From: Candidatus Doudnabacteria bacterium RIFCSPHIGHO2_01_FULL_46_14
GTDB taxonomy: Bacteria > Patescibacteriota > Doudnabacteria > UBA920 > 2-01-FULL-46-14
Length of the DNA stretch: 64,000 nucleotides
Direction of reading: 5' to 3'
Assembly (NCBI GenBank): GCA_001779925.1
Contig: MFEK01000016.1
Location: 142,504-206,503 of the forward strand
Each line of letters opens with the position of its first letter. Position 1 is the stretch's first letter. Below the pieces are notes generated by a model. That model saw only the letters and a list, made by a program, of their open reading frames with translations, searched no databases and had not been told where the DNA came from. This document shows, piece by piece, positions 49 to 50,998 of the stretch. A program made the position numbers and the translations under genes.

Positions 49-95
49 CTCCTCTTTCTTCTCCCCCTCGTGTGAGGGAGAATAAGAGGGGGTTA
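49..95. repeat. GC-rich palindromic repeat (subtype TCTCCCCCTCGTG..AGGGGGAGA..AGAGGGGGTT). Lies in the recF 5' leader and supplies its RBS
   Basis: Inverted C-tract/G-tract arms. Near-identical copies at 2381-2422 and 29061-29097. Confidence 0.7.
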
Positions 96-101
96 TAGTT
101 T

Positions 102-1271
102 ATGCACATAAATAAAGTTAGTTTTCAAAATTTCCGCAACTTTGGCAGACTGGAATTAAAATTTAATCCTGGTTTTATCGTGCTTGCCGGGCCAAACGGC
201 ATGGGTAAAACAAATTTTTTGGAAGGGCTTTATTGGGGGGCGGTCCTGCGGCGCTTTCCAGGAACAAAACTTGGCCAGCTAATGCGCGACAATGAACTAT
301 TTTACAAAATAAATTTACAGTTTCATTCTAAAGATGAAGAAATATTAGAGATCGTTTCTGAAAGAGAGGGAGAGAAATATTCGGCCCAAGGCCGACCAGC
401 CTCGGGCTGGAAATTTACCTACAGATACAATAACCTCGCTGTGCCGCGCGCGAAATTTGCCGGTCATCTGCCAGTGATTAGCTTTTTGCCGGAAGATTTG
501 AACCTGCTCGGGCACTCACCTGCTGGACGCAGAAGATATTTAAATGAAACCCTCTCTACTACCTCTGCGGAATATCGCCGCAATCTATCAGAGTATGAAA
601 AAACTCTCAAACAGCGAAACGAGCTCCTGCAAAATCTCGAGTCAGAATCAAACAGCGGACAGGACGAGATCTGGAACGAGCGGCTGGCAGAGTACGGCAG
701 TTTGATCATCGCGGAGCGCCAAAAGTTTTTAGAATTCGTAAAAGAAAGATTCGAGGCGGCAACCACAGCGCTGTCGCCAGAATTAACCGGAAGCATGATT
801 GATTATCGTTTTTCCGGAAGCCCTGACAGGCAAGGATTTCTGGCAGAAATCAGCGGGCTGGGAGCGCGTGAAAAAGAAGCTCATGGAACTTTAATCGGCC
901 CGCATAAAGATGATTTTCGCCTCTCCTGGCTTGACCGCGAGGTGATTGGTTATGTGTCGCGCGGCCAGCTCAGAAGCTATACTTTGGCCCTAAAAATCCT
1001 GGAGCGGGAATACATAAAAGACAAGCTCTCTGCCCAGCCGGTCATGCTTCTCGACGATGTGTTTTCCGAATTTGACGAGGCTCACCAGCGCGCGCTTATT
1101 GATTTCCTGCAAACTTTTGACCAGGTATTTTTGACCACAGCACATTTGAAAGAAGTCCAACCCTTTCTCCCGGTAAATTCACAAGTGTACAATGTAAATG
1201 ACGGTACTATTATTCCCTCTCCGTTTCCGCATTTCCCTCCCCTTGAGGGGGAGGGATTAAGGGAGGGGTGA
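102..1271 (+). CDS. recF: DNA replication and repair protein RecF. The C-terminal ~20 aa are read through a GC-rich repeat copy
   Basis: Walker A GPNGMGKTNFLEGL. MHINKVSFQNFRNF N-terminus typical of RecF. SMC-like C-terminal motifs. Tail PLEGEGLREG encoded by repeat 1221-1270. Confidence 0.9.
   Translation: MHINKVSFQNFRNFGRLELKFNPGFIVLAGPNGMGKTNFLEGLYWGAVLRRFPGTKLGQLMRDNELFYKINLQFHSKDEEILEIVSEREGEKYSAQGRPASGWKFTYRYNNLAVPRAKFAGHLPVISFLPEDLNLLGHSPAGRRRYLNETLSTTSAEYRRNLSEYEKTLKQRNELLQNLESESNSGQDEIWNERLAEYGSLIIAERQKFLEFVKERFEAATTALSPELTGSMIDYRFSGSPDRQGFLAEISGLGAREKEAHGTLIGPHKDDFRLSWLDREVIGYVSRGQLRSYTLALKILEREYIKDKLSAQPVMLLDDVFSEFDEAHQRALIDFLQTFDQVFLTTAHLKEVQPFLPVNSQVYNVNDGTIIPSPFPHFPPLEGEGLREG
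1221..1270. repeat. GC-rich palindromic repeat (CCCTCCCCTTGAGGGGGAGGGATTAAGGGAGGGGTG)
   Basis: Near-identical copy at 1569-1613. The two copies bracket the DUF721 gene. Confidence 0.8.
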
Positions 1272-1278
1272 AAAATTT

Positions 1279-1566
1279 ATGTTCAACAGCCTCAGCAAAC
1301 TCCTTGGCGATAAATTTTCCCGCAAGGACGATCTCTCAAAGCAAATCGAGATCGTCAAGGTTTTTGACGTGTACCGCGAGGAAATGAAAAACCTCTTCCC
1401 CGAAGAAGAGATTACTGTGGTGAGCCTGAAAGACAAAACTCTTTTGATTCAGCTTAATAACTCTGTCCTGGCAAATGAACTGCGTCTGCGCGAATGGAAC
1501 ATCATCTCCAAAATCAACGCCACCATGAGCAAAGAGGTGGTAAAGAAAATTATTTATCGCTTCTAG
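1279..1566 (+). CDS. DUF721 (DciA/YaaB-like) small protein, in the position downstream of recF that is conserved across bacteria
   Basis: 95-aa basic protein immediately after recF, as in the dnaN-recF-DUF721-gyrB neighbourhood. Product assigned from position and size. Confidence 0.55.
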   Translation: MFNSLSKLLGDKFSRKDDLSKQIEIVKVFDVYREEMKNLFPEEEITVVSLKDKTLLIQLNNSVLANELRLREWNIISKINATMSKEVVKKIIYRF

Positions 1567-2371
1567 TTCCCGTTTTTCCCTCCCCTTGAGGGGGAGGGAT
1601 TAAGGGAGGGGTGATGGATTCGTAGACGTATTCAAACAGTTTTTTCATAGTCTTCGCGATATTATTGTCTTCAATGATAACCGCGATTGGTTCTTTTTCT
1701 GAGAAAGACATGATCGCGGTTTTATTATCATAGACATCTATTTCTGTATCAAACGCGAATTGCTCAGGAATCAATTTCGTCTCTCGCAGGAGTTCTTTAT
1801 CGCGTGTCTGGCTTTTGCGCGACCATTCGGTGTCCGGCGCAATATCTAAACATTTGATTCCGCTTCTCGCGCGTTTTTGCAGATAATATTCTACCCACTC
1901 GTGCGGCATTTCGCGAAAGATCGCATCCGTACCGGTAAAATCGCGCAGGGTTTTTTCCTCGTTATTTATCAGTGTGTCTTCGTAGGCTTGTTTGATCCCC
2001 TCGATTCCTTCAAAAAACTGAATCCGCGGAAAAACGCTTTTTTGCCGGCGCAGGCGGGAAAGCTGCGGTAGAATGGATTTGATTTCTTTTTTTGTTTCGG
2101 AAAGATTTGATTCCAGCCGCTCTACATAGTTAATCAGGTGAGCTGGCTCAATTGACTGAAACATAAGCACGCCCTTTTCTTTGGTCTGAGACACGAGCCC
2201 GCGGTTCATGAGGGTTTTTAAAATTCCGTAAGCCGTGGTCCGGTTGATCTTGGCAAATTTCGCAATATCACGCACCCGCAGTTTTCCCTCCTCCAAAAGG
2301 AGAATAAGCACTGCGGTTTCTTTTTGATCGAGATTGAGGCTTTGGAGAATTTTATGAAGTTCAGCAATCAT
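1550..2371 (-). CDS. TrmB-family transcriptional regulator (paralog 1)
   Basis: N-terminal wHTH LRVRDIAKFAKINRTTAYGILKTLMNRGLV typical of TrmB. The C-terminal tail PPQGEGKTGT is encoded by a repeat. Confidence 0.8.
   Translation of the reverse strand: MIAELHKILQSLNLDQKETAVLILLLEEGKLRVRDIAKFAKINRTTAYGILKTLMNRGLVSQTKEKGVLMFQSIEPAHLINYVERLESNLSETKKEIKSILPQLSRLRRQKSVFPRIQFFEGIEGIKQAYEDTLINNEEKTLRDFTGTDAIFREMPHEWVEYYLQKRARSGIKCLDIAPDTEWSRKSQTRDKELLRETKLIPEQFAFDTEIDVYDNKTAIMSFSEKEPIAVIIEDNNIAKTMKKLFEYVYESITPPLIPPPQGEGKTGTRSDK
1569..1613. repeat. GC-rich palindromic repeat, second copy bracketing the DUF721 gene. It also encodes the C-terminal tail of the minus-strand TrmB regulator
   Basis: 36/36 identity of core with 1235-1270. 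Confidence 0.8.
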
Positions 2372-2380
2372 GTTCAGCTA

Positions 2381-2422
2381 TTTTCTCCCCCTCGTGAGGG
2401 GGAGATGAAGAGGGGGTTAATT
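2381..2422. repeat. GC-rich palindromic repeat in the 5'UTR of TrmB paralog 1
   Basis: TCTCCCCCTCGTGAGGGGGAGA is a perfect 9-bp-arm palindrome. Same subtype as 49-95. Confidence 0.7.
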
Positions 2423-2444
2423 AAATTAGTGAATATATAAGGCT

Positions 2445-2473
2445 ATTATACACCTGTTGTCGAAAAATGTCAA
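2445..2473 (-). promoter_or_regulatory. Near-consensus sigma70 promoter for TrmB paralog 1 (TTGACA-N17-TATAAT on the minus strand). An ~40-bp block here is conserved with the paralog 2 promoter
   Basis: Reverse complement reads TTGACAtttttcgacaacaggtgTATAAT. The motif TGTTGTCGAAAnAAnGTCAACA plus GGCTAAA is shared with 25335-25375. Confidence 0.6.
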
Positions 2474-2576
2474 CAATAGGGCTAAACCATTGACTTTTAA
2501 CCTCTTTTAATATAAGCTATAAGGTGTTTAAATTTCTAAACATAATAGCAATTTAACAATTTGAGCGGAGGAGCAC

Positions 2577-3302
2577 ATGAGTCACTTAGCAAAAGCCCAA
2601 CAGTATGTGAAAGAGATGTTTGAAGTTTGGAAAGATGATACTACAGGAAAAAGAATGAGCAGAGGGGAAAGCTGGGTCATCGGAGAGGCGATAGGTTATT
2701 TTGTACTAGGCTTTCGGGAATATCCGGCTGAGTTACTCAGTCTGACGCTGGAAATTTTGGTGAAGAATGGTGTTGATTCGCGTTATTGCCGGTGGCTCCT
2801 TGATTACGTACAGAATGGTCCATTGTTTTTCCCTGAAATCTTTGATTGGGATTCAATCGCAAAATTTGAGGACCGCCTCGCAGCACATTGGCCGTGTACC
2901 AGTCCAGCGCGCTATGTCTTTGCCCAGGAGTATTGGCTTGCCAACAGCGAAATCCAGACTGATCCATCGAGAACAATTTCCGCTCTTCACCTGAACAGTA
3001 TTGTCGGATCCATGACCACCAAGGAAGAGAAGATGTGGTACTCAGAATATTTCCACGGCGAGCACTTTCTGCTTCCTTATCCTCAGGGGATTGCTTCTAG
3101 ACTTCAGGATTTAATCCAAAGCGTGAACAAGCTGACTACGGACATAAAATCCCAAACTGCTGATCTCGCAGTTGTGACTATTCTCGTCCGGCAGAAGCGG
3201 GAAGCTGATAAAGCTTTTCTGGAAACCGTATACTACAACATCGCAAAGCCATTTCTCCGCGGAGAATCATTCCCCTACCCAGGAAGAAAAACAGAAGTTT
3301 GA
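2577..3302 (+). CDS. Hypothetical protein (241 aa), divergent from TrmB paralog 1
   Basis: Long ORF with RBS GGAGG at 2567-2571. No recognisable motif. Confidence 0.5.
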   Translation: MSHLAKAQQYVKEMFEVWKDDTTGKRMSRGESWVIGEAIGYFVLGFREYPAELLSLTLEILVKNGVDSRYCRWLLDYVQNGPLFFPEIFDWDSIAKFEDRLAAHWPCTSPARYVFAQEYWLANSEIQTDPSRTISALHLNSIVGSMTTKEEKMWYSEYFHGEHFLLPYPQGIASRLQDLIQSVNKLTTDIKSQTADLAVVTILVRQKREADKAFLETVYYNIAKPFLRGESFPYPGRKTEV

Positions 3303-3332
3303 CATCTCTCATAGAGAAAGGAGGTGAGAAGG

Positions 3333-3701
3333 ATGATAAACAGGGTGTTTGAATTTACACATCCAGCGCTTCCCGGCGTGTCTGTATTTGCGCTTGGGAC
3401 GGAGACGGAAATCGGAAAGAGGCAGGAGGTGTTGGTTTGTATCCCGCCTAATGGCACTATTCCGCTTCACAAACACAGCGTTGATGCGGAAATGTACATT
3501 GTGCATGGTACTGCGACTTTGCTTTCTGATGATTCGGAGCTGGACGGTGCTGTTGTGGCAACCGGGACTCGTGTATTTTTCCAAAAGTCCATGAACCACG
3601 GCTTCAAGGCTGGTGACAAAGGAATGAAGTTTATTTCCCGTAATAACGGCATAGTGAATGCGGATTCGCAGAAATGGGACATCGAGTTTGCCGCCGTGTA
3701 A
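3333..3701 (+). CDS. Cupin-domain protein
   Basis: Cupin motif PLHKHSVDAEMYIVHG...G. RBS AAGGAGG 8 nt upstream of ATG at 3333. Confidence 0.65.
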   Translation: MINRVFEFTHPALPGVSVFALGTETEIGKRQEVLVCIPPNGTIPLHKHSVDAEMYIVHGTATLLSDDSELDGAVVATGTRVFFQKSMNHGFKAGDKGMKFISRNNGIVNADSQKWDIEFAAV

Positions 3702-3747
3702 AAGGCTGGGGAAAAATCGAAAACGGAGGGAGGTGATAAAAAAGCAA

Positions 3748-3781
3748 GACCGACGAATGAAACATTCGCCGGTCTTTTTGT
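3748..3781. terminator. Bidirectional rho-independent terminator
   Basis: GACCGACGAATG-aaac-CATTCGCCGGTC followed by TTTTTG. Confidence 0.6.
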
Positions 3782-3796
3782 TGCGAGTAGACTTGC

Positions 3797-4495
3797 TTAA
3801 GCAACGAGGTGCAGACGACGCGCAAAGCCGCGGAGTCTGATGAGCGCCCTAGCATTGGAATTCCGAGGTGTAAGGTAATACGTGCGGAATTCAATCAGTG
3901 TCAGTGATGCTGGACAGAAGATTGAGAGATCTTCGGTAAACAACCACCATAGCCAGGTTGTTGCGATAGTTGCTCCCAGATGTAGGAAATGCCAGTCGTC
4001 TTTGACGCCGAGGATAACCGGCCAAGTTTTCATGGCATCATATCTGTCAGCATTCACATCGCGCCAGTCTCCAAGTGCGTTTCTAATTGCAGTCGCTATC
4101 GCAGCGACAACAGAAAACCTGAAATCCGCAAAGGGAGATGTAAGGGCAAACACCTGTGCCCCTCGGAAAAATGGAGAAAGCAGACCCCAGCGCCCATCTT
4201 TCTTGCGAGCATATTGAATGGAACAGCAGAGATACAAGACAATCTCGTTTTGGTGATGGGCGCCAAAGTATGTCCCGCCAATGAGTACACATAAAGCCCA
4301 AGGTAGATCTCCAATCACCGGTTCTCTTCCAGGCTGTTTGTGTCGGGACTCCAGAAATGCGAGGAATCCAACATGCAGCATCACTGCACCAAATATTGGA
4401 CCAAGAGGCGCCGTCGCTGCGAACATCATTAGTATGAGGTCCACGAGCGAGTAAAGCCTGAGCTGGCCTAAATAATTCTTAAGCTTACTTTTCAT
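3797..4495 (-). CDS. Polytopic membrane protein with a UbiA-like Asp-rich motif (divergent or truncated prenyltransferase?)
   Basis: Hydrophobic throughout. Motif NALGDWRDVNADRYDAMKTWPVILG resembles the UbiA first motif NDxxDRxxDxxxKRT..RPLxxG, but its position and the short C-terminus are atypical. Start taken at MKSKL after RBS GGAGG. Confidence 0.4.
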   Translation of the reverse strand: MKSKLKNYLGQLRLYSLVDLILMMFAATAPLGPIFGAVMLHVGFLAFLESRHKQPGREPVIGDLPWALCVLIGGTYFGAHHQNEIVLYLCCSIQYARKKDGRWGLLSPFFRGAQVFALTSPFADFRFSVVAAIATAIRNALGDWRDVNADRYDAMKTWPVILGVKDDWHFLHLGATIATTWLWWLFTEDLSIFCPASLTLIEFRTYYLTPRNSNARALIRLRGFARRLHLVA

Positions 4496-4620
4496 CTCGA
4501 GACCTCCTAAGTCTTTTTGAGTGTTCGAACCTGCAATAGTAATAAAAAATTCCGAAGCTGTCAATGCTTCGGAATAGAAAAGGGCACGGACCTTGAGGTC
4601 GAGTGCCCGATTCAGAGTGG

Positions 4621-5745
4621 TTATTCGACAGTCACCACGAATGCCGTGGTGAAATCATGAGTCTCGTTGTTCGCCGCGGGAGGAATCCCCACGGTAAGGA
4701 AGACAAGCTGTTCGCCGCGGCACGGACCTGTGAGTTCAAACACGCATCTGAGCTGCTCATTGAGGCGGTTCCAGCTTTGACATCCCTTGTCACGAGGTTC
4801 GAGGTCATTACCCTCAATAACTTTGACGTCCTCAAACCCCTCAGCGCGGCAGGTGATCATCATCCATTCGAGTCCAGAGCGGTTAAACTTGAGGTTTGCT
4901 GGCGGGTGGATTTGGACGCCGACGAACAGAGAATCCCCGACCTTGATTTTACTACTTGTGTGGATGACTCCCATTCGTACGGGGCCGACTTTGTCTTGCA
5001 GGCGGGCGTTAGCGTCTTTAATAAATTTCTCATAGCTTACGCTAGATTTCATACCCTGCAAGCGCTTGATCCCGGTGTTCAGAAAAGCTAGGTTTTCCGC
5101 CAGCGCGAATTCATCCATGTGTCGTACGGGGTTGTCGGACTGCAAAGCATCTCGGATAGAGGTGAGGTCGGGAAGCAGAGTGAAGTCTCCTGCCTCATGA
5201 ATGAGTTTGATGCCTCGTTTAGCCAGAAACCAGCTGCCGTCCGAATACGGATGGTCGCCTTGACCTGGATCAATTTCGCCAATGAGCTGCCGGCAGAAGT
5301 TTTGTATATTCTCAATCCGCCAGTAATCGAGATTGAAAATTGATTGCATCAGGACGGAGCTTACCTTGGCAAGCGCAAATTTGCGGTCCCCGAGATTCTC
5401 GTAGCCTTCCAAGGCGATTCGGACGGCCTCCTTCATGGCCCAGAAGCGAATTTCATTGGGTCGCGGGTGGCGGCAGCAGGACAGCAGGAGTCGTTCCGCG
5501 AATTTATTCGGATCGTTGTACATGATCAGGTCCGGCAGTCGGTTGATAATCCAGTTCACGAAATCCTTGTCAGCCGGCCAAGCCCGCGGGCCAGTGTACT
5601 TTTCCATGACCGAAACTGCTGCTTCCCATTCTTCGATTGTTCGGCCTGTATCAAAGGCTAGCTGCGGGTGTTCCTCAGCTGTTTTGATGAAACTGGACAG
5701 TGGATAGGGGCGAGCCAAAAAATGGTGTCTGTTCGAAATGTGCAT
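4621..5745 (-). CDS. Hypothetical protein (374 aa), soluble, with its own promoter and palindromic leader
   Basis: Long ORF with RBS AGAGGG. No recognisable catalytic motif. Confidence 0.5.
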   Translation of the reverse strand: MHISNRHHFLARPYPLSSFIKTAEEHPQLAFDTGRTIEEWEAAVSVMEKYTGPRAWPADKDFVNWIINRLPDLIMYNDPNKFAERLLLSCCRHPRPNEIRFWAMKEAVRIALEGYENLGDRKFALAKVSSVLMQSIFNLDYWRIENIQNFCRQLIGEIDPGQGDHPYSDGSWFLAKRGIKLIHEAGDFTLLPDLTSIRDALQSDNPVRHMDEFALAENLAFLNTGIKRLQGMKSSVSYEKFIKDANARLQDKVGPVRMGVIHTSSKIKVGDSLFVGVQIHPPANLKFNRSGLEWMMITCRAEGFEDVKVIEGNDLEPRDKGCQSWNRLNEQLRCVFELTGPCRGEQLVFLTVGIPPAANNETHDFTTAFVVTVE

Positions 5746-5761
5746 ATACCCTCTTTCGTCC

Positions 5762-5838
5762 GCGCCGGGCGCGGTATTGTGAAATTCCTGTCTGAGACAG
5801 GTAGCATAATTTTAGTCGTTAGAGGCAAGTTGGTCAAC
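5762..5838 (-). promoter_or_regulatory. Promoter (TTGACC-N17-TAAAAT on minus) plus two perfect palindromes (CCGCGCCgGGCGCGG, CCTGTCTgAGACAGG) in the leader of the 374-aa gene
   Basis: Reverse complement of 5810-5838 gives TTGACCaacttgcctctaacgacTAAAAT. Palindromes at 5762-5776 and 5788-5802. Confidence 0.4.
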
Positions 5839-5854
5839 CGATTAACATTCATAA

Positions 5855-5895
5855 AAAAACACGCCTCGGTCTCAAGGAATAAGACCGAGGCGGCG
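5855..5895 (-). terminator. Rho-independent terminator downstream of the flippase gene
   Basis: 11-bp stem CGCCTCGGTCT/AGACCGAGGCG with a T-run on the minus strand. Confidence 0.6.
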
Positions 5896-5990
5896 AATGT
5901 AAATATTGTCAAAGCTTCAATATTTTTTATTATTCCCAAATTAATACAAATGTATAAAATTGGGAATAAATCGAGTATGTGGCTTGGATT

Positions 5991-7412
5991 CTAGTTTGGT
6001 TCGAGGAATAATATCTCGCGGACGAATGAAAGGGGTACGGCTTTGAATAGAATCAGAAGTAATATATATATCGTGCCGCCGAGAGCGATTTCGAGGATCC
6101 ATGGAAGATTTATAAAATAAAAAAACGCAGTCATGCTGAGGATGGCTGGAATTGACTTTGCGAGAATATTGAAAGATAGCCCTTGGCCGCTCTTCTTTTT
6201 TACCAGGTTATAAGCATACAGTGCCACAACCAGTTCCGTTGCGACTGTGCCCCAGGCAGCTCCCCAATACCCAAAGTTCGGAATAAGCGTAAAATATAAA
6301 ACTAATCCCAATATTGCGCCGAGCAGGTAGCCGCGTACCATAGCGCGCTGCTCATTTACTGCCACGACTGCATAACCAAACAGCGTGCCGCAGAAAATAA
6401 TCATGACCGCAATGATGAGGATTTGCAGAAGACCTGCGCTGTCGGCAAAGCCTTGGCCGCGCTCCAGTAGATTGATGATTTCTCGGGCAAAAAATTCAAA
6501 CACAGCAATCACCAGAATGCCCATGAGAAGCAGGGCATCAAAGGATCGCTGCAAAGTTTTCTGAAATTCCGGCCAGCTGACAGAAGCCGTGCGCGAGAGA
6601 ATAGGCATAACCAAACCCACAAACATGGCCGGGAACGAGAGCAGGCCTTCGAGAAGCTTGTAGGGAAGAGAGTAAACTCCGACTGCCTCCTGCGATCTGT
6701 ACCACGAGAGGATGATCGTGTCGGTTTTGAAATATAAAAGGTTCAAAATCACGCTGAATACGAGCGGCCAGGAATCTCGGAGAATTTGTTTCCAAATTGT
6801 AAAATCAAATTCGATTCCGAATCGTTCATATTTGCGGGCCCAGAGAAAGGTCAGCAGAAAAGTGGTGGCATTGCCAAGAATCAGGGCGACTATAAAAACA
6901 GATAGCGGTAAATCGTTTTTGATTGCATAGTAAATTACTGCCAGGTTGACCACTCTGCCTAAAGTTTCGGAAACGACCACGAGATACTGCACTAGGTGTT
7001 TTTGAAAAACACCGATCAGCACCTGATTTAGCGACATAAACAATAATGCAGCAATTCCCACAAACATGGTCTTTTTCACGAGCGGATCATAGGGCAACGC
7101 CTGCGCGATCAGTGCGCCTGTTATCAGGAGTATGAGCGAAGTAGTGAGGCGCAAGCCAAAAATATTGCTGAGAATCTTTTGGTGATCAGTCCCCTCTTTT
7201 GATATTTCCCGCACTCCATAAAGGTACAGACCAAAATCCGCCAGCACTGCGAAAAATCCGAGGTAAGCAGTAATAGTCGAGTATTGCCCAAAGCCATGCT
7301 CTCGCAAATGTTGGGAGAGAACCGCGACTGTTAATAAACCGATAAGCGCGGCGAATATTTTTCCCGCGCTTTGCATGACTGTGTTATAGAAGATTCGGCG
7401 AACCGTGCTCAT
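5991..7412 (-). CDS. Polysaccharide biosynthesis protein / MOP-family flippase (Wzx/MurJ-like)
   Basis: 473 aa, ~12-14 TM helices, typical Wzx-like architecture. Confidence 0.7.
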   Translation of the reverse strand: MSTVRRIFYNTVMQSAGKIFAALIGLLTVAVLSQHLREHGFGQYSTITAYLGFFAVLADFGLYLYGVREISKEGTDHQKILSNIFGLRLTTSLILLITGALIAQALPYDPLVKKTMFVGIAALLFMSLNQVLIGVFQKHLVQYLVVVSETLGRVVNLAVIYYAIKNDLPLSVFIVALILGNATTFLLTFLWARKYERFGIEFDFTIWKQILRDSWPLVFSVILNLLYFKTDTIILSWYRSQEAVGVYSLPYKLLEGLLSFPAMFVGLVMPILSRTASVSWPEFQKTLQRSFDALLLMGILVIAVFEFFAREIINLLERGQGFADSAGLLQILIIAVMIIFCGTLFGYAVVAVNEQRAMVRGYLLGAILGLVLYFTLIPNFGYWGAAWGTVATELVVALYAYNLVKKKSGQGLSFNILAKSIPAILSMTAFFYFINLPWILEIALGGTIYILLLILFKAVPLSFVREILFLEPN

Positions 7413-7858
7413 TGTTTTTGAGCATCACTTGCTTTTTTTGTAAGTACAGAAGAGCTTTGGACTTTCTGTCCACCTACATTATAAATCATTTCAATTCCCA
7501 GCTTGCGGCACAGTTCAACTTCTGGAACAGGGTCCAGGTCTGGTCTTCTATCGCCACCGTTAAAAAAATGAGTTGGTTTAAGTCTTTCTAATTCCTTGCA
7601 GACTGACATATCAGAGGGTTTTGCTTGATGAGAGGTTATAACAACATCATCTACATACTTAGTAGCCCGTAAGACGGCTTCACGTTCCTTTTCAGGCATA
7701 AACGTAAATCCCTTTTTAGCTCGTAGCCAATTATCATTGTTTAAAATTACTAGTAATTTGCCATTATGTGCGTTTGCAAAGTGTTTCGCTTCGCGTAGCA
7801 GGTTGATGTGGCCGACATGCAGGGGATCAAACCCGCCAGAAACCGCGACAATCGTCAT
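7409..7858 (-). CDS. Cytidylyltransferase-like nucleotidyltransferase (HIGH-motif family, RfaE-II/TagD-like)
   Basis: VSGGFDPLHVGHINLL HxGH motif. Start overlaps the flippase stop. Confidence 0.7.
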   Translation of the reverse strand: MTIVAVSGGFDPLHVGHINLLREAKHFANAHNGKLLVILNNDNWLRAKKGFTFMPEKEREAVLRATKYVDDVVITSHQAKPSDMSVCKELERLKPTHFFNGGDRRPDLDPVPEVELCRKLGIEMIYNVGGQKVQSSSVLTKKASDAQKQ

Positions 7859-8424
7859 TGCTTTTGTCCTTTCAATCCCCTTTGCTGGAGCGGTACTTGC
7901 TTGTAAAGATCCAGGACCTGTTTTACTACCGCGTTGGGATCAGGGATATAATCAAATTCAAATCGGGTTTTGGTACCCGCGGTCTGCACATAGACATGGC
8001 CGTAGTTAAAAAGATTCCCCAGGACGCCTTTGATCTCCGAGCTGACATCTTCGATCTGCGCAATATGGATTTCCGTGGTGGAATGGAACAGGAGATTTTT
8101 TTGATCAACGTCTACAAGCCGCTCATTGGTAATGATTTGATAATTTAAGTAGTAAAGAATCCAAATAGTCATGATTCCAGCCATGAGATACATGAGATAA
8201 ACGCTTTTTACAAAATTGGCAATTTTTACGGCCTGCGGCGTGTCCAAAATCGGGAACTCGTTTACGATAAAGCCGTCATAAAAAAATAGGATGCCGACAA
8301 ATATCAGCCAGACAAATATTTCCTTGGCCAGCACCATCCAGTGCTTCCTGGTAACCAGATAAATGCGTTCATCAGGACGCTGTCCGGGGAACAGAAAAGA
8401 TGGGGAGAGAAAATTAAATTTCAT
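7855..8424 (-). CDS. Membrane protein with bacterial PH domain (bPH_2, YdbT-like)
   Basis: Two N-terminal TM helices followed by a ...ITNERLV...GHVYVQTAG... bPH_2-like segment. Confidence 0.5.
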   Translation of the reverse strand: MKFNFLSPSFLFPGQRPDERIYLVTRKHWMVLAKEIFVWLIFVGILFFYDGFIVNEFPILDTPQAVKIANFVKSVYLMYLMAGIMTIWILYYLNYQIITNERLVDVDQKNLLFHSTTEIHIAQIEDVSSEIKGVLGNLFNYGHVYVQTAGTKTRFEFDYIPDPNAVVKQVLDLYKQVPLQQRGLKGQKQ

Positions 8425-8638
8425 AAAGATTGAAATCCGGGAATGATAATGCAGAAAAATTAGCCAAAGCGGCCGCGTAAAGCGTGGTCATGATAATGGC
8501 GTAAAGCGCGCACACAGTGAGGCTGAGGATTTTTGATTTTCCGTAGTGAAGCAAAATATAGACCATAACCAGGCTATAAATCGCATGAATGCCCAGGAGG
8601 ATGTAAAAGACAGTTTGGACGATCAGTTTGATGATCAT
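8414..8638 (-). CDS. Small membrane protein (74 aa)
   Basis: Two hydrophobic helices. Overlaps neighbours by a few nt, as in operons. Confidence 0.35.
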
Positions 8639-9678
8639 ATTAAGGTGTTCATTTGTGATTTTTGTTGGGCGATGCCGAGGTGTTCATAAGCCAGCGCGGT
8701 CGCGACTCGGCCTTTTGGGGTGCGATCCAAAAACCCCAGGCGCATCAGGTATGGCTCGTAAATATCGGCAATGGTTTGTTCTTCCTCGCTGGTCGCGGCT
8801 GCCAAAGTGTTTATACCCACTGGTCCGCCCTGGAATTTTTCAATGAGCGCCAGCAAAATAGAGCGGTCATTGCGATCAAGGCCGAGAGCATCCACCTCCA
8901 GCATGTCGAGAGCCTGCCGGGCAAGCTCGTTGGTGATTTTGCCGTTAGAACGAACCTCGGCAAAATCGCGCACGCGCCGTAGGAGGCGGTTTGCGATTCT
9001 CGGAGTTTTGCGCGCGCGTTTGGCGATTTCTTGGCCGGCCAGAGACTCCATGCCAATGTCGAGAATTTTTGCACTGCGCGTCACAATCTTTTCAATTTCT
9101 TCTTCGCCGTAAAAATCAAGCCGCACGGTAACGCCGAAGCGATCACGAAGCGGACCGGAGAGGAGGCCGATGCGGGTGGTAGCGCCGATGATGGTAAAGC
9201 GCGGCAGATCAAGACGCACGGACCGCGCGCCCGGCCCTTTGCCGAGAACTATATCAAAAGCAAAATCTTCCATGGCCGGATAGAGAATCTCTTCCACGAC
9301 TTTGGGAAGACGGTGGATTTCGTCGATAAACAAGATGTCATTATTTTGCAGGTTGGTCAGAAGGCTGGCGAGGTCGCCCGCGCGTTCAATAGCCGGCCCA
9401 GAGGTCATTTTGATCTGCACTCCGGTTTCATTCGCGAGCACAAAGGCCAGGGTGGTTTTCCCAAGTCCCGGCGGGCCATAGAGGAGTACATGCTCGATTG
9501 GCTGTTTTCTTTTTTTGGCAGCCTCCAACAGAATCTTGAGATGCTCTTTGTTTTTCTCCTGGCCGATATAGTCACGCAAAGTTTTCGGCCGCAAAGTCAG
9601 ATCCAACCGCTCTTCTTCCGAGGCTTGCGGTTTGACTACTCTTTCTTGCTCTTTTTTTTCTGAGGTTTTCTCGATCAT
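8635..9678 (-). CDS. ruvB: Holliday junction DNA helicase RuvB
   Basis: Walker [12 protein letters not shown], Walker [11 protein letters not shown], RuvB C-terminal wHTH. Confidence 0.9.
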
Positions 9679-9684
9679 TGGTTA

Positions 9685-9718
9685 CTCCCTCTCTTAAGTT
9701 AAGAGAGGGTAGGGTGAG
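9685..9718. repeat. Perfect palindrome CCCTCTCTTAAGTTAAGAGAGGG (GC-rich family variant) overlapping the ruvB RBS
   Basis: 11-bp arms with no loop. Related to the ..CCCCTTAAGATAAGGGG.. copies at 24030-24113. Confidence 0.55.
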
Positions 9719-9862
9719 TTATGAATCACTAATTCAATTTTACCATTCTCAACCAGCATTGACAAAAGCCCTATTTTATGCAAAAATGGGTTGCCGCATT
9801 ATGGGACGATGTCAGCAAAGCTGGCGCGGAAACCCTGAGCGGACTTACGGAGGTATAGTGTG

Positions 9863-10414
9863 ATGAGTATGACTATTATTTGGTTGACGAGTGAAGGAAA
9901 AGACATTTTGCAGAGGTTTGGTGAAGCCAAGGGGGATTTGAAGAAGGCAAAATTCGAGAATTCGCATTGGCACAACTTTTTGTACGATTTCTCGCATGGA
10001 GAGAATCCTCTGCGATCGCTGCTTGGTGACTTTACCCTGCGAAAGATCCAGCCTTATGACATGCAGGCTCTTATCTGCGATGCTGGACCGCTCGGCATTT
10101 TAGACCCGACTGTTGTCGAGCCTGCATTGCCCATGGGACTTCCAGAGTATTGGGTGGAGAAGGTCACGATGCGAACAACGATCGTAGACAATTTCCGCAA
10201 GGACGGTCGATACAGGTGTCAGAATGGCACAATTGTGGCGATGCAAGATTATGTCTATTCGCCGAATTCCATCGATCTAGTCCAACGACTCTCTGTCCAG
10301 GCCAACACCGTCGCCGCTGCTAAGGATATTCTCCGAGCTTTCTTGGCGGGGGAGTTGTTTCCAGAAGCCGGTGAAGACTTCACTGCGCCACAACAAGAAC
10401 GACCGAATAATTAG
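9863..10414 (+). CDS. Hypothetical protein (183 aa)
   Basis: RBS GGAGG 9 nt upstream of ATG 9863. Ends at a clean terminator. Confidence 0.5.
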   Translation: MSMTIIWLTSEGKDILQRFGEAKGDLKKAKFENSHWHNFLYDFSHGENPLRSLLGDFTLRKIQPYDMQALICDAGPLGILDPTVVEPALPMGLPEYWVEKVTMRTTIVDNFRKDGRYRCQNGTIVAMQDYVYSPNSIDLVQRLSVQANTVAAAKDILRAFLAGELFPEAGEDFTAPQQERPNN

Positions 10415-10425
10415 TCAGCCTCGAA

Positions 10426-10456: not shown

Positions 10457-10463
10457 GCTTTAT

Positions 10464-45339: not shown

Positions 45340-48015
45340 TTATTTTAATTGTTTGACTTTGGCTTTGAGGGTTTTGACTTTGGTTTCGGCGGCTGACAGG
45401 TCTGCCTGCATTTTTTCTACTATTTCTTTCGGGGCTTTTTTCAGAAAGCCTTTATTTTTTACCTGAGTAGAGATTTTTTTGACATAGCTTTCTGCCTCTT
45501 TGAGCTGTTTTTCTGTGAGGGCGGCTTCTTTTTTGGAATCAAAATTGGGGATGACAAGGTAAATGCGGACGCCTTCCCAAAGAAAATACGGCATTTTGTG
45601 GGCATGGTCCATCACGGCAAAATTGAGCTTGGTTCTGGTGAGCTTTTCGATAACTGGGGTGTGATCTTTTATCCATTCGAGATCTTTGGGAATTTCTAAA
45701 TAGCTTGAATAAATTGGGGTGGACCCCAGACGGTATTCTGCCCGCAGGTTGCGCAGGCCAGTCACGAGTTCGCGCATAGCTTCAAAGAGCGGGCGGGCCG
45801 CGAATTTTTCTATTTTCTCCGGAACATGGGGGTAATCATCCACCATTAGCAGGCTTTTGGCCATCTGCGACCAGATGTGCTCAGTGACGAAAGGAATGAA
45901 AGGATGCCACAGTTTTAGAATATTAACCAGGAGGACATCGAGAACTTCTTTTTTATTGCCTTCGATTTTGGCAATTTCCAAATACCAATCCGCCAGATCA
46001 TCCCAGGTAAACCGCTGGAGTTCTTCCGCGGCTTGGCCATATTGGGAGTTTTCAAAATGGCGGTTGACCGCGGCTACTGTTTCATCCAGGCGATCAAGAA
46101 TCCAATGATCGGCAAGCGTTGATAACCCTCCCCCACCTCCCCTTACCTTAAGGGGAGGAGTCGAGAGAATGAATCTCGAGATATTCCAGAGCTTATTGAC
46201 GAAATTGCGGCCAGCCTCCACTTTGATTTCCGAAAATTTCATGTCATTTCCCGGCGTGTTGCCGAGCACCAGTGACAACCGCAGCGCGTCAGTGCCGTAT
46301 TTGGCCTGGATATCCAGCGGATCAATGCGATTGCCGCTCGATTTACTCATTTTTTTGCCCTCAATGTCGCGCACCAGCCCGTGCAGGTAGACGGTTTTGA
46401 AAGGAATATCGTTTAATAGAAACCCGGTCATCAGAACCATGCGCGCTACCCAGAAAAACAAAATATCATAGGCGGTTTCCAATACCACGGTAGGGTGATA
46501 GGTTTTTAAATCCGAGGTTTCCTGAGGCCAACCCAGCGTGGAAAAGGTCCATAGCCCGGAAGAAAACCAGGTATCAAGCGTGTCCTCGTCCTGTTTGAGG
46601 TTTGCGCCCTGGCATTTTGTGCAGGAAGCTGGGGGCTCCACGGCCACGATGGTTTCGGTGCAGTCCGGGCAGTACCAGACCGGAATGCGGTGGCCGTACC
46701 AGATTTGCCGCGAGATGGTCCAATCCCGCAGATTTTTCATCCACTCAAAATAGATTTTCTCGAAATGCTTGGGCACGATTTTGATAGCGCCCGATTTCAC
46801 CGCCGCAGTCATCATTTCCTTGAGGGTCGTCTTTTCCGGCAGTCTCAGATTTTTACTAAATTCTTTATTCTCTATTTTAAATTCTGCATTCACATTCACA
46901 AACCACTGCTTTGAAACAACCGGTTCCACCACAGTGCCGCAGCGGTAGCAGGTGCCGACGCGATGCTCAATCTCTTCGGTTTTTTCGATGAACTCCTTTT
47001 CATGGAGTTCCTGCACGATGCGGTTAAGCGCATCCTCTTTCGTAAGTCCCGCATAGTCGTCAAACCCATGATCCGCGGCTTCCTGCGCATCGATTTTGCC
47101 GTCTGCCGTGTAGAGGTGAATCATTTCCAGGCCGTGGCGTTTGGCAATTTCAAAATCATTATGGTCATGGCCGGGTGTGACTTTCATAGCTCCAGTGCCG
47201 AACGCTTTATCAATATGATCATCCGCGATAACCGGCACCTCGCGGTTCAAAAGCGGGAGCATGATGATCTTGCCGACATATTTTTTGTAGCGCGAATCGC
47301 CTGGGTTAACGGCCACGCCAGTGTCGCCAAGCATAGTTTCCGGACGGTTTGTCGCTACAACCAGGTAGTCTTCACTGTCTTTTACGGGATAACGCAGATA
47401 AAACATGTGACCTTTGGCTTGTTTGAAGCTGACCTCATCATCGGCCAGAGTCGAGCCGCAACGCGGGCACCAATTAACCATGCGTTCGCCGCGGTAGATG
47501 AGTCCGGCGTCATGCATTTTTTTGAAAGCCGTACGCACTGCCAGTGACAGCTCCGGGGACAACGTAAATTTTTCGCGCGTCCAATCGCAGGACGAGCCCA
47601 TTTTGCGGATCTGGTTTTGGATGCGCCCTTGGGTATGACTGACAAATTCTTCGATGCGCCTCAGAAGCTGCTCTCGGCCCAGGTCAGTCCGGGTTTTTTT
47701 CTCTTCTTCGAGAATTTTGCGTTCCACAACATTTTGGGTGGCAATGGCTGCGTGGTCAGTACCCGGTAGCCACAGAGCCTTGCGGCCCCGCATGCGCGCA
47801 TGGCGGGTCATAATATCCTGCAGAGTGATGAACAGGGCGCTTCCCAGGTGCAGTTCGGCTGTAACATTGGGCGGCGGCATGGCAATGGAGAACGGTTCGG
47901 CATTCCAAAACCGGTCCCCGGCTTTTTCTAGATTATCAGGATTGAAAAAGCCCGATTTTTCCCATTTCTCGTAGATTTTATCCTCAAATTCTTGTGGATT
48001 ATAGGCTTTGCTCAT
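45340..48015 (-). CDS. valS: Valyl-tRNA synthetase, with one in-frame GC-rich repeat insertion
   Basis: HIGH-like PPNVTAELHLGSALF, KMSKS, editing domain, C-terminal coiled coil. Insert at 46124-46166. Confidence 0.9.
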   Translation of the reverse strand: MSKAYNPQEFEDKIYEKWEKSGFFNPDNLEKAGDRFWNAEPFSIAMPPPNVTAELHLGSALFITLQDIMTRHARMRGRKALWLPGTDHAAIATQNVVERKILEEEKKTRTDLGREQLLRRIEEFVSHTQGRIQNQIRKMGSSCDWTREKFTLSPELSLAVRTAFKKMHDAGLIYRGERMVNWCPRCGSTLADDEVSFKQAKGHMFYLRYPVKDSEDYLVVATNRPETMLGDTGVAVNPGDSRYKKYVGKIIMLPLLNREVPVIADDHIDKAFGTGAMKVTPGHDHNDFEIAKRHGLEMIHLYTADGKIDAQEAADHGFDDYAGLTKEDALNRIVQELHEKEFIEKTEEIEHRVGTCYRCGTVVEPVVSKQWFVNVNAEFKIENKEFSKNLRLPEKTTLKEMMTAAVKSGAIKIVPKHFEKIYFEWMKNLRDWTISRQIWYGHRIPVWYCPDCTETIVAVEPPASCTKCQGANLKQDEDTLDTWFSSGLWTFSTLGWPQETSDLKTYHPTVVLETAYDILFFWVARMVLMTGFLLNDIPFKTVYLHGLVRDIEGKKMSKSSGNRIDPLDIQAKYGTDALRLSLVLGNTPGNDMKFSEIKVEAGRNFVNKLWNISRFILSTPPLKVRGGGGGLSTLADHWILDRLDETVAAVNRHFENSQYGQAAEELQRFTWDDLADWYLEIAKIEGNKKEVLDVLLVNILKLWHPFIPFVTEHIWSQMAKSLLMVDDYPHVPEKIEKFAARPLFEAMRELVTGLRNLRAEYRLGSTPIYSSYLEIPKDLEWIKDHTPVIEKLTRTKLNFAVMDHAHKMPYFLWEGVRIYLVIPNFDSKKEAALTEKQLKEAESYVKKISTQVKNKGFLKKAPKEIVEKMQADLSAAETKVKTLKAKVKQLK
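46124..46166. repeat. GC-rich palindromic repeat in frame within valS (encodes PLKVRGGGGGLS on the minus strand)
   Basis: CCTCCCCTTACCTTAAGGGGAGG. Confidence 0.7.
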
Positions 48016-48986: not shown

Positions 48987-49861
48987 GCTGTTTGCGATAA
49001 GGCAATGAACAGAACCCCTGCGAACATAATTATCGCTCCGGCGATCCGGGTCCTAAAGGATTGATCCTTGAAGATCGCGTAACCCATCAGTACTGCAAGT
49101 ACTATGCTAAATCTTTTTATGGAAATAACATAAATAACCAAAGTTAGGCTAATGGCTGTAGTTTGGCAGATAAACACGAGACTATTCACGAATCCGATTA
49201 GGGACATGAACTTTATATTCTGTAGGATTTGTGAACCAGCCTTTTTAACTGTAGCGAGGCAGATAATAAGCAAAGCTATCGCCATAAAACTCGATCCAGC
49301 AACCGACCAAAATAGAGGCGAGGACTGACTAATGCCGATTTTTTCTAGATTTGAAGTAATGCTCCAGATTGCAGCAGTTCCTAGAACAAACCGAGGCCCT
49401 TTTTCTCGCAATATTGTTTTAAATGGGCCCAATATTCCACCATGTTCGCCTCCGAGATTTAGGACATATGATCCAATAGTGATGAGGAGCACACCGGCAA
49501 GCCCCAATGCAGGCGGGAACTCACCAATAATAAGAGGCGAAGTGATGAGCAAAAACGCTGGAGTAAAAGCCAAGAAAGGTATGACCTTTGACAGCTCCCC
49601 TGCATTGATTCCTTTGACAAGCAAGACTGTCGCGATTAGGTTGAGAGACCAGGTGCCAAATAAATATTTCCAAAAATCTGGACCAAGCTCTGGAAGATGT
49701 CCGCTCAGGACGAGGTATAGGATGAGAAATGGCATAGCGAATAGGTAGAATGAAAGACTGACAACCAGCTCATCAATTCTGCGGTTTAGTCCATATTTGC
49801 TTAGGACGTTTTTTGTTCCTTCTGCGAGTGCGGCTCCAAAAGCTATAAGAATTCCGAGCAT
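48983..49861 (-). CDS. EamA/DMT-family transporter
   Basis: 10 TM helices with duplicated EamA-like halves. Confidence 0.7.
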   Translation of the reverse strand: MLGILIAFGAALAEGTKNVLSKYGLNRRIDELVVSLSFYLFAMPFLILYLVLSGHLPELGPDFWKYLFGTWSLNLIATVLLVKGINAGELSKVIPFLAFTPAFLLITSPLIIGEFPPALGLAGVLLITIGSYVLNLGGEHGGILGPFKTILREKGPRFVLGTAAIWSITSNLEKIGISQSSPLFWSVAGSSFMAIALLIICLATVKKAGSQILQNIKFMSLIGFVNSLVFICQTTAISLTLVIYVISIKRFSIVLAVLMGYAIFKDQSFRTRIAGAIIMFAGVLFIALSQTA

Positions 49862-50998
49862 TTATTTCCAACTCCTTAATTCCCAGTTGGGATTGACCTT
49901 GATTTTTTTTATTGGTGTGCCGCGGTTGCCAGCTGAGTATTGGTAAAATGCGGCCATGGTGATCATGCCAGCGTTGTCAGTAGTGAGATTGGAATGTGGA
50001 ATATGGAATGTTGAATGTGGAAGGGATTTTTTGATGGCCGAAGCTAGTTGTTTGCGTAGTTTTTCATTAGCGGAAACGCCGCCGCCGAGAAGAATGGTTT
50101 TTACTTTGTATTGTTTGGCAGATCTGATGGTTTTTGAAACAAGTACGTCAACGATGGCTTGTTCTACGCTGGCAGCCACGTTGGCGACTTGCGATTGGCG
50201 ATTGGCGACCAGCAAGGATTGCCAGTGGTAAAGCACTGCGGTCTTCAGGCCGGAAAAGGAAAAGTCATAATTTTTAGAATCCATCATCGGCCTTGGGAAA
50301 TCAAAAGCCTGGGGTTTGCCTTTCTTCGCGAGTTTTGAAATTTCCGGCCCGCCAGGGTAAGGCAGACCCATGATTTTCGCGACCTTATCAAAGCATTCGC
50401 CTGCCGCGTCATCAACTGTTTCGCCCAATATTTTGTATTTCCCAATTTTTTCGACAAGGACCAACATCGTGTGGCCCCCCGACACTACCAAGCCTAATGC
50501 TGGAAACTTCACCCTCCCCTTACCCCTCCCCTCAAGGGAGGGGAATTCCTCCCCCTTGAGGGGGGAGGATAAAGGTGGAGGTGACTCATTCGCCAAGGCG
50601 GAAAGCAAATGTCCTTCCATATGGTTAATCGGCAGGATGGGGATCTGCAACGCAAACGCCAAAGCTTTGGCAGTATCTACGCCAATCATCAAAGAGGTGA
50701 CAAGGCCCGGCCCAGCAGTAACTGCGATCGCGTTAATATCTTTGAGCTGGACCCCCGCTTTCGCGAGGGCTTGTGCGATTACGGGCAAGATTTTCAAGAT
50801 ATGATTGCGTGCGGCAACCTCCGGGACAATTCCTCCGGTTTTTTGGTGGATATTGATCTGTGAATAGATGATATTCGAAAGAAGCCGGAACTTCCGACTT
50901 TTTGTCTCACCTTCCAGAACAGCCGCGCTCGTCTCGTCAGCGGAGGATTCAATGGCGAGAATGTGTGTCACCCCTGCACCAGATTTAAACCAATTCAT
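49862..50998 (-). CDS. tsaD: tRNA t6A37 threonylcarbamoyltransferase TsaD (Kae1/YgjD) with a ~30-aa in-frame repeat insertion
   Basis: ILAIESSADETSAAV N-terminus and HMEGHL metal-binding motif. Insert at 50509-50583. Confidence 0.85.
   Translation of the reverse strand: MNWFKSGAGVTHILAIESSADETSAAVLEGETKSRKFRLLSNIIYSQINIHQKTGGIVPEVAARNHILKILPVIAQALAKAGVQLKDINAIAVTAGPGLVTSLMIGVDTAKALAFALQIPILPINHMEGHLLSALANESPPPLSSPLKGEEFPSLEGRGKGRVKFPALGLVVSGGHTMLVLVEKIGKYKILGETVDDAAGECFDKVAKIMGLPYPGGPEISKLAKKGKPQAFDFPRPMMDSKNYDFSFSGLKTAVLYHWQSLLVANRQSQVANVAASVEQAIVDVLVSKTIRSAKQYKVKTILLGGGVSANEKLRKQLASAIKKSLPHSTFHIPHSNLTTDNAGMITMAAFYQYSAGNRGTPIKKIKVNPNWELRSWK
50509..50583. repeat. Tandem GC-rich palindromic repeats in frame within tsaD (encode SPPPLSSPLKGEEFPSLEGRGKGRVK on the minus strand)
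   Basis: CCCTCCCCTCAAGGGAGGGG and CCTCCCCCTTGAGGGGGGAGG. Confidence 0.75.

Follow-up and report, generated by a model that had tools for sequence, protein, structure and literature searches.

Repeats of apparent BoxC/PIT/TMECO kind are dense in a Candidatus Doudnabacteria genome and lie in frame within its essential genes

The short bacterial repeats called BoxC, PIT or TMECO came to light about 30 years ago, and to our knowledge neither a function nor a way of spreading has been generally agreed on for them. Earlier work on BoxC and PIT includes that of Bachellier et al. in the 1990s and of Hoyne et al. in 2000. First named BoxC in E. coli, then rediscovered as PIT (potential intrastrand triplex) elements and renamed TMECO, they follow the consensus CCCTCNCCC N3-6 GGGNGAGGG N3 GGGNGAGGG (Holder 2015, PMC4666352) and number 3610 copies in 262 proteobacterial genomes, with 23 in E. 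coli K-12 that are always intergenic and in part arranged as inverted pairs. According to the same study, these repeats are not associated with transposons, were found to have neither promoter nor terminator activity, are associated with local genomic variability, and form a triplex in vitro as an isolated strand that was not detected in vivo (PMC4666352). A second described system, the Rickettsia palindromic elements (RPE; Ogata et al. 2000, reviewed in PMC10969869), comprises palindromic repeats that are also found inside genes. Here, we describe a repeat family in 64,000 nt of Candidatus Doudnabacteria bacterium RIFCSPHIGHO2_01_FULL_46_14, a groundwater metagenome-assembled genome (MAG) of the candidate phyla radiation (CPR); this stretch, with a G+C content of ~47%, is referred to as the window. 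The element class as such is already described, and the new aspect is a CPR lineage in which it densely colonises coding sequence.

What does the element look like? The window holds 19 intact and at least two degenerate copies of a GC-rich repeat of 33-40 bp with three arms: a C/T arm (Y), a loop of 2-6 nt, a complementary G/A arm (R), a spacer of 1-4 nt that is frequently TTA or TTAA, and a second purine arm (H) that frequently ends in GGTGA. Stems are 9-10 nt long, the Y arm occurs in 14 distinct versions, and three subfamilies can be told apart by the first loop (TTGAG/TCGAG, CTC-GT/AT-GAG and TTA-NNN-TAA). We scanned for the arms in the order Y, loop, R, spacer, H, with R being the reverse complement of Y, and H running antiparallel to R with G opposite G and A or T opposite A; at most one Watson-Crick and one Hoogsteen mismatch were tolerated, and the reported matches comprise 9-10 triads. 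This class II scan returned 20 matches, ten per strand, which amount to 19 elements because the one at 48-92 is armed on both sides and scores twice. Neither 100 dinucleotide-preserving shuffles of the window nor a scan of the window for the class I block order (H-R-Y) gave any match. Simpler patterns pointed the same way: CCCCC N2-12 GGGGG matched nine times as compared to 0.52 expected, a perfect-stem scan recovered family members where the initial annotation, made from the sequence alone, had placed them, and a looser hairpin scan found 19 pyrimidine-then-purine clusters (one of them, at 28710-28738, of a different hairpin family) against 0-4 in mononucleotide shuffles and two of the opposite polarity. 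That annotation had reported at least 18 dispersed copies of a simple hairpin, some of them nearly identical. Number and places hold, as does the near-identity of copies at unlinked sites (1232-1271 and 1575-1614 agree at 40/40 positions; 25283-25322 and 27877-27916 at 37/40); what it overlooked is the third arm, and with it the likeness to a kind of repeat that had already been described.

The third arm is a mirror repeat of R. In 18 of the 19 copies the mirror arrangement fits better than a direct repeat, the remaining copy being a tie, and the flanks are not duplicated, so that H as a direct repeat or target-site duplication was rejected. A G-quadruplex built from the R and H arms was discarded as a reading, since it fits a few copies (G5-A-G3-ATTAA-G3-A-G4) and not the CTCGTGAG or TTAAG subfamilies. 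Judged by its sequence, the element has the architecture of a class II, purine-motif intrastrand triplex, and its single strand could fold as a hairpin with H lying antiparallel on R through G*G:C and A/T*A:T triads. Computed as single-stranded DNA, the Watson-Crick hairpins reach -8.7 to -10.7 kcal/mol, and the inverted pair in tsaD reaches -26.8 kcal/mol. Since the mirror third arm covaries with the hairpin, we argue that a triplex-capable fold, rather than the hairpin alone, is under selection. The copies in the window are as follows.

48-92, plus strand: element with Y-R-H arms at 59-92 and an extra 5′ pyrimidine arm at 48-56; 9 nt upstream of the recF ATG
1232-1271, plus strand: element of the TTGAG-loop subfamily, coding for the last ~12 aa of RecF and, with its terminal TGA, for the recF stop; 8 nt separate its third arm from the dciA ATG that follows
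1575-1614, plus strand: element between the convergent dciA and TrmB-1 genes; part of the TrmB-1 C-terminal tail, antisense
2384-2418, plus strand: element of the CTCGTGAG subfamily, 12 nt upstream of the TrmB-1 start (minus strand)
9687-9721, plus strand: element of the TTAAG-type subfamily, 8 nt upstream of the ruvB start (minus strand)
16793-16824, plus strand: intergenic element downstream of a pilB-like ATPase gene
19143-19177, minus strand: element in polA, aa 228-239, antisense; 11-aa insert relative to Taq polymerase in the 5′-nuclease domain
19378-19413, minus strand: element in polA, aa 306-318, antisense; linker of the 5′-nuclease and 3′-5′ exonuclease-like domains
19876-19905, no strand assigned: degenerate, hairpin-only copy in polA; 8-aa insert PSPLVKGV
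20693-20727, minus strand: element in the fingers subdomain of polA, aa 745-756, antisense; 8-aa insert between DIH..TA and RRAAKTINFG
24032-24064, plus strand: first element of an inverted pair, 9 nt upstream of the uvrB start (minus strand)
24076-24108, minus strand: second element of this pair, 30 nt upstream of a small SprT-like zinc-ribbon ORF
25238-25273, plus strand: first element of an inverted pair, 11 nt upstream of the TrmB-2 start (minus strand)
25283-25317, minus strand: second element of this pair, intergenic; 37/40 identity to the Mur ligase copy
26609-26644, minus strand: element 5′ of ruvA, with the purine arm 11 nt before what is probably the true ATG, near 26657
27877-27911, minus strand: element in a MurE-like Mur ligase gene, aa 180-191, antisense; variable segment with a 4-aa gap relative to T. 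maritima MurE
28199-28278, minus strand: composite, degenerate copy in the Mur ligase gene; 17+3-aa insert before VDFAHTP
29063-29097, plus strand: element in the C-terminal part of a short tsaB-like ORF, aa 106-118, sense
46123-46158, minus strand: element in valS, aa 620-631, sense (PPLKVRGGGGG); variable loop
50512-50544, minus strand: element in tsaD, half of an inverted pair, aa 152-163, sense
50547-50583, plus strand: element in tsaD, other half of the pair, aa 139-151, antisense

Three closely spaced inverted pairs are thus present (24032/24076, 25238/25283 and 50512/50547). The composite at 28199-28278 runs from the complement of the third arm and a Y arm through a ~47-nt loop, which has a small hairpin of its own, to an R arm. 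One further copy lies upstream of the window in a Wzy_C gene.

How does this family relate to the repeats of E. coli? By architecture and collinear alignment, the window element appears to be a member of the BoxC/PIT/TMECO kind. Shared are the succession of Y, loop, R, short spacer and reverse-Hoogsteen purine arm, stems of ~9 nt, and the dispersed, multi-copy occurrence in both orientations, with some inverted pairs and no associated transposase (for the window family, within the window and the 8 kb upstream). The loops (2-6 nt and 1-4 nt) match the 3-6 nt and ~3 nt of TMECO, and the TTGAG-loop copies have the same first loop, TTA second loop and GGTGA end as E. coli BoxC. Unlike TMECO, the window copies miss the strict consensus and form three loop subfamilies; unlike the E. 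coli copies, reported as always intergenic, about half of them lie inside ORFs; their density of ~0.3 per kb contrasts with the 23 copies per chromosome of E. coli K-12 (PMC4666352); and their host, a CPR bacterium, falls outside the taxa surveyed in 2015.

The kinship extends over many phyla. In a collection of species-representative genomes, the pattern CCYYYCCCTTGAGGGGRRRGG, which describes the hairpin and specifies no third arm, was found at no fewer than 120 loci, in Alphaproteobacteria, Dehalococcoidia, Nitrospirae, Atribacterota, Thermodesulfovibrionales, Deinococcus, Clostridia, Planctomycetota, Peribacteria and others. Among the listed matches, a mirror third arm followed at a distance of at most 8 nt (with at most one mismatch) in 73/133 cases, as compared to 3/133 random controls. 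A 38-mer from the listed loci, CCCTCTCCCTTGAGGGGAGAGGGTTAGGGTGAGGGTGA, is found in 5409 of 5426 complete E. coli genomes, with up to 97% identity across its full length and a median of 18 places per genome; the best matches listed carry no annotated feature. An E. coli copy aligns collinearly with copies of the window, Dehalococcoidia, Nitrospirae and Atribacterota, having the TTGAG loop, TTA spacer and GGTGA end in common. Lineage-specific composites with an extra small hairpin between R and H were also seen (L007-L126, e.g. L029, L065, L076, L094, L011, L021 and L022), such as tcggaccgcaggtccg-GGGTGGGGTGA in Rhizobiales and ggaccgcttgcggt-GGATGAGGTG in Clostridia. A permissive Rfam scan of the whole window returned only a tRNA and sub-threshold microRNA-like matches on the inverted pairs, and no family for the element. 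Literature searches by sequence (CCCCTTGAGGGG and GGGTGGGGGTGA) brought up an unrelated paper and papers on telomeres and G-quadruplexes, those on palindromic inserts in CPR gave nothing relevant, and for in-frame intragenic BoxC or TM elements no paper was found.

Within the window, seven intact and two degenerate copies lie deep in conserved genes, and three more form C-terminal tails, namely of RecF, which ends at the element's own TGA, of TrmB-1 and of the short TsaB-like ORF. When PolA, TsaD, ValS and MurE are aligned to PDB structures, the sequences before and after each insert match in one and the same frame, which rules out that the gene-internal copies are spacers between split genes. 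Taq polymerase, for example, aligns to either side of the 11-aa insert TSPLPNPPPQG in the 5′-nuclease domain of PolA (ORF 18461-21292) and of the 8-aa insert ALSSRGEG in its fingers subdomain. In TsaD (49862-50998, minus strand; OGE77923.1), the inverted pair accounts for 21 additional aa, placed precisely at residue 127 of E. coli TsaD. The insert regions of TsaD, PolA and MurE read SPLKGEEFPSLEGR, DIFNLTPALSSR and IHPHLTSPLEGEELK, respectively, and the peptides derived from the elements vary with frame and orientation (TSPLPNPPPQGEG, HPHLTSPLEGEE, STPPLKVRGGGGG). Antisense copies outnumber sense copies within ORFs, an excess that fits the stop triplets on the sense strand (TGA in TTGAG, TAA in TTAA and the terminal TGA). 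As judged from the reading frames, the gene-internal inserts are presumably translated.

Where do the inserts fall in the folded proteins? In an AlphaFold model of TsaD (mean predicted local distance difference test score, pLDDT, of 91.4; predicted template modelling score, pTM, of 0.89), residues 139-165 are the sole internal segment of low confidence (pLDDT 42-49, coil), and the insert sits between helix 126-136 and strand 167-172; it is thus predicted to be a disordered loop between secondary-structure elements. Loop placement derives from this model for TsaD, and from alignment gaps alone for PolA, MurE and ValS. Most of what the initial annotation had said about coding sequence is borne out, including the tails on recF, a TrmB regulator and a TsaB-like protein and the single in-frame copy in valS, while other items take a slightly different form: the four copies counted in polA are three intact ones and a hairpin-only relic, the two in the Mur ligase gene are one intact and one composite copy, and tsaD holds two copies instead of one. 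An addition of 10-30 aa per insert is right for TsaD and for the 11-aa segment of PolA and too high for ValS, with its net gain of ~3 aa over T. thermophilus ValRS. Likewise, the proposal that the inserts occupy tolerant surface loops agrees with the modelled coil in TsaD, and for the other sites has alignment gaps to go by.

The same annotation was not aware of such insertion as a described feature of CPR-like genomes. Gene-internal copies are not specific to this group. In the listed loci of other phyla, 26 of the 140 motif positions are situated within long open frames. Five of ten translated non-CPR frames were checked against Pfam and all five proved to be genuine genes in which domains flank the motif; it lies in frame in MutS, IleRS, ValRS, Mfd and a YgiQ-type radical-SAM protein (L026, L071, L100, L012 and L035, respectively). 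In MutS of a Rhizobiaceae MAG, ~70 aa are inserted just before the Walker A motif, and the IleRS is that of a cultured isolate, Tianweitania populi KCTC 42249. By sequence, then, alphaproteobacterial MutS, IleRS and ValRS carry such motifs as well.

Comparison of orthologues confirmed, at the level of sequence, that the inserts are lineage-specific, as had been suspected, and that they are gained, lost or replaced among close relatives. The closest relative of the window PolA (P0122, 94% identical) shares three of the inserts and is without the one in the fingers; relatives at 68-78% identity are without all four, and more distant ones have different Pro/Gly-rich inserts at the same sites. The PSPLVKGV insert is confined to the window PolA, P0122 and P0126. 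In 60 relatives of TsaD, the same loop contains inserts of differing length and sequence, or almost none. DNA of four relatives revealed class II motifs of other subfamilies: the loop holds an inverted pair in L127 and a single copy in L128, L004, L005 and L128 have motifs at other TsaD positions, and in L004 the loop itself is occupied by a different hairpin family. For tsaD, no relative was close enough for an empty-site comparison, the nearest with DNA having 74% protein identity.

Two further observations concern the TsaD loop. P0003 TsaD is 72% identical overall, yet its 27-aa loop segment is the same as that of the window, which suggests that the DNA itself is constrained there or that the element pair has been transferred. 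In the homologues P0006-P0046, from many related CPR lineages, the loop after NHxEGHLLS carries AT-rich repeat-like inserts (NFQFQISNFQK, SYKLQA, NSKFQIPNSKF), which points to other repeat families as users of this permissive site where genomes are AT-rich.

Copies outside genes tend to lie next to start codons. While the initial annotation had rightly placed many copies between genes or in 5′ untranslated regions, it overlooked that most of them abut a start: 7 of the 12 non-intragenic copies are located 8-12 nt upstream of the start codon of recF, dciA, TrmB-1, ruvB, uvrB, TrmB-2 or ruvA, as compared to 3.7% expected at this position from random placement in non-coding sequence (binomial P ~6e-8). 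Two others are plainly intergenic and one lies 30 nt upstream of the SprT-like zinc-ribbon ORF; the copy at 1232-1271 is counted both as RecF tail and as upstream of dciA, so that the context groups sum to more than 19. Purine arms such as GGGAGGGG and GGAGGTGA are often found at the position of a ribosome-binding site and may serve as one. The purine arms (such as GGGAGGGGTGA and GGTGGAGGTGA) look like extended Shine-Dalgarno sequences when judged against the universal CCUCC anti-Shine-Dalgarno, the host 16S gene lying outside the window. The other genes of the window mostly have AT-rich leaders without a recognisable Shine-Dalgarno sequence, a minority having a canonical GGAGG at -8 to -11. 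For ruvA, the longest ORF (start at 26589) begins within the element; its Pfam RuvA_N match starts at residue 24, and the true start is therefore probably the ATG near 26657.

Some neighbouring genes deserve mention here. The window encodes three paralogous TrmB-family regulators of similar size (1550-2371, 24429-25226 and 33390-34139), two of which have an element 11-12 nt before the start and one of these also an element-encoded C-terminal tail. The dciA gene (1279-1566) is flanked by the 40/40 identical elements in direct orientation, and these direct repeats could mediate its deletion or duplication.

How might the family have come about? We consider it probable that these are proliferated 33-40 bp repeats of the BoxC/PIT/TMECO kind that have spread to many places, with selection deciding which copies persist. 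The family would spread as a non-autonomous unit of 33-40 bp. Extragenic copies would be neutral or useful, and might be kept, or land preferentially, near starts, where their purine arms could serve as ribosome-binding sites. In essential genes, the insertions that survive would be those that keep the frame, avoid the TGA or TAA of the element and fall into permissive loops; the C/T and G/A arms would then yield Pro/Ser/Leu and Gly/Glu/Arg stretches that can be accommodated as flexible surface loops. If a triplex forms, single-stranded DNA would be its likely setting, because RNA is reported not to support purine-motif triplexes (PMC4666352).

Several observations weigh against this reading. 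Neither a transposase, a REP-associated tyrosine transposase (RAYT) nor an integrase was found in the window or in the 8 kb upstream (Pfam annotation of ~40 ORFs and precomputed annotation of flanking contigs), and the identity between 1232-1271 and 1575-1614 extends no further than the element, neither a target-site duplication nor a terminal inverted repeat being visible at these two copies. Fourteen arms in 19 copies is an unusually high diversity for a recently active mobile element. The strict TMECO consensus has no match in the window, as compared to 23 in the listed loci of other phyla, and the triplex of E. coli TMECO is seen solely with isolated single strands (PMC4666352). Lastly, the clustering 8-12 nt upstream of starts hints at function rather than pure selfishness, and local generation, rather than insertion, could also explain why different sequences occupy the same protein loops time and again.

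The latter two points lead to rival explanations. The elements might be mainly cis-acting expression signals, a 5′ stem-loop and a Shine-Dalgarno-like purine arm setting translation initiation or mRNA stability, with the intragenic copies as by-products. The position before start codons, the resemblance of the arms to a Shine-Dalgarno sequence (again with respect to the universal CCUCC), the lack of a recognisable one in most other genes of the window and the stability of the single-strand hairpins are what such a role would predict. It leaves aside, however, the roughly half of the copies that lie inside ORFs in both orientations; the arm closest to the ATG is buried in the hairpin in five of the seven start-proximal cases, and spacings extend to 12-14 nt; in published tests, the E. 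coli relatives did not act as promoters, terminators or regulators, and their distance to ORFs was not fixed (PMC4666352); the mirror third arm has no part in the regulatory model, and purine-motif triplexes are reportedly not formed by RNA (PMC4666352). We thus think it unlikely that regulation is the main story. That the elements are not mobile at all, and have arisen repeatedly in place by structure-prone mutation (slippage or template switching) in length-tolerant loops, seems to us very unlikely, although the loops of TsaD and PolA do hold different hairpin-like inserts in each lineage, AT-rich ones in AT-rich relatives, such motifs have been tied to local instability by Holder et al. (PMC4666352), and the missing transposase and target-site duplication, along with the arm diversity, are in its favour. 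Local generation would hardly produce copies with 40/40 or 37/40 identity at unrelated loci, nor would it yield a TTGAG loop, TTA spacer and GGTGA end conserved from CPR to E. coli and other phyla. The mirror third arm, moreover, should not be makeable by templated copying of either strand, which again argues for selection on the triplex-capable fold.

Could the repeats be artefacts of assembly or binning, i.e. chimeric joins or collapsed repeats in a MAG? The source is a metagenome assembly, and one PolA relative (P0141, 739 aa) ends exactly at the fingers-domain element (…DIFNLT), which would fit a contig end at a repeat, the contig record being unseen. Nonetheless, we give this explanation practically no weight: four independent assemblies from different samples or pipelines agree at 99.98-100% identity including the intragenic copies (L001-L003 from ENA, 99.98-99.99% over window positions 39862-60998; L130 from JGI, 100% over 1-11271), and the reading frames are intact and align to solved structures on both sides. 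The initial annotation had itself named such an artefact as what would undo its claim.

The window begins directly downstream of rnpA-yidD-yidC/dnaA-dnaN (L130, 1-8380) and is therefore origin-proximal; cumulative GC skew rises across nearly its whole length, with small dips only, and it is therefore probably a single replichore. Over this replichore the elements are split evenly between the strands (10/10), which argues against lagging-strand, single-stranded DNA transposition of the IS200/IS605 type. A stand-alone GIY-YIG ORF of ~85-105 aa is found a few kb from tsaD here (57738-58055, minus strand) and in a relative (L127, 138-392), and would be a candidate to include when looking for an element-processing enzyme.

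Other known repeat systems are reminiscent of the window element in one respect or another. Like RPE, it consists of palindromic non-coding repeats that lie in frame in unrelated housekeeping genes of a small-genome bacterium and add peptide segments without destroying the protein, with copies between genes too; in this functional sense, the analogy drawn in the initial annotation holds. RPE, however, measure ~100-150 bp, fall into ten families, are confined to Rickettsia and each encode a conserved peptide, whereas the window elements measure 33-40 bp, have three arms, occur in either orientation and in several reading frames, and represent a pan-bacterial class of motif; kinship in sequence with RPE is not expected. 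By length, sequence and lack of a conserved peptide, then, the element behaves like an RPE but is not one. REP sequences and REPINs are likewise short (20-40 bp), GC-rich, imperfect palindromes that are dispersed and often form inverted doublets, from which the window elements differ in their third arm and their copies inside genes; a GTAG-type head as in REP was not seen in the alignment of window copies. Miniature inverted-repeat transposable elements such as Correia, ERIC and Nezha are also small and non-autonomous and can make in-frame fusions with host ORFs (PMC10969869), yet they have terminal inverted repeats and target-site duplications and usually exceed 50 bp, while neither feature is seen at the two identical copies of the window.

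The window contains further repeats and a possible RNA structure. A second, unrelated hairpin family, CGCCTCTTCGGCGACCAGCCGAGGAGGCG, is found at 28710-28738, just upstream of the tsaB-like start, where it codes for the C-terminal tail SSATSRGGG of the Mur ligase; with one mismatch, its reverse complement is the TsaD loop insert of the 74%-identical relative (L004, ~6000-6070). An AT-rich repeat, AATTAG-N3-AATTAG, has four matches against 0.47 expected, at 27305-27335, 30100-30130 and 30190-30215, that is, upstream of the Mur ligase gene, just downstream of an ABC ATPase gene and upstream of an ABC-2 membrane gene. At 56234-56579 (minus strand), upstream of a cold-shock-domain gene, Rfam gives a weak match to the cspA thermoregulator (24 bits versus a gathering score of 78; E=0.034) that is probably not significant.

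Repeats of BoxC kind, so far described as strictly intergenic, are here found dense in a minimal CPR genome and inside essential enzymes, including DNA polymerase I, in its fingers subdomain, and likewise TsaD, MurE and ValRS, with the same protein loops being used recurrently in related lineages. The inserts thus provide a natural map of insertion-tolerant loops in PolA, TsaD, MurE and ValRS. There are practical effects as well: proteins become longer, spurious low-complexity tails appear, start-codon calls are misled, as exemplified by ruvA, and the elements may break contigs in metagenome assemblies, the PolA entry P0141 being one that stops at an element. At the same time, the mirror symmetry of the third arm renders the question of the motif's function more testable. 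A more far-reaching reading, which we hold only tentatively and with more doubt than confidence, is that of one pan-bacterial mini-element, spread and maintained by undiscovered machinery that would read both structure and sequence of a triplex-forming single strand, thereby writing peptides into PolA, TsaD, MurE, ValRS, MutS and IleRS and supplying ribosome-binding sites; it is suggested because the third arm covaries across 14 arms and the non-stem nucleotides are conserved from CPR to E. coli. If true, a CPR genome on the ~1 Mb scale (a size we assume) would offer an unusually short list of candidate genes for this machinery.

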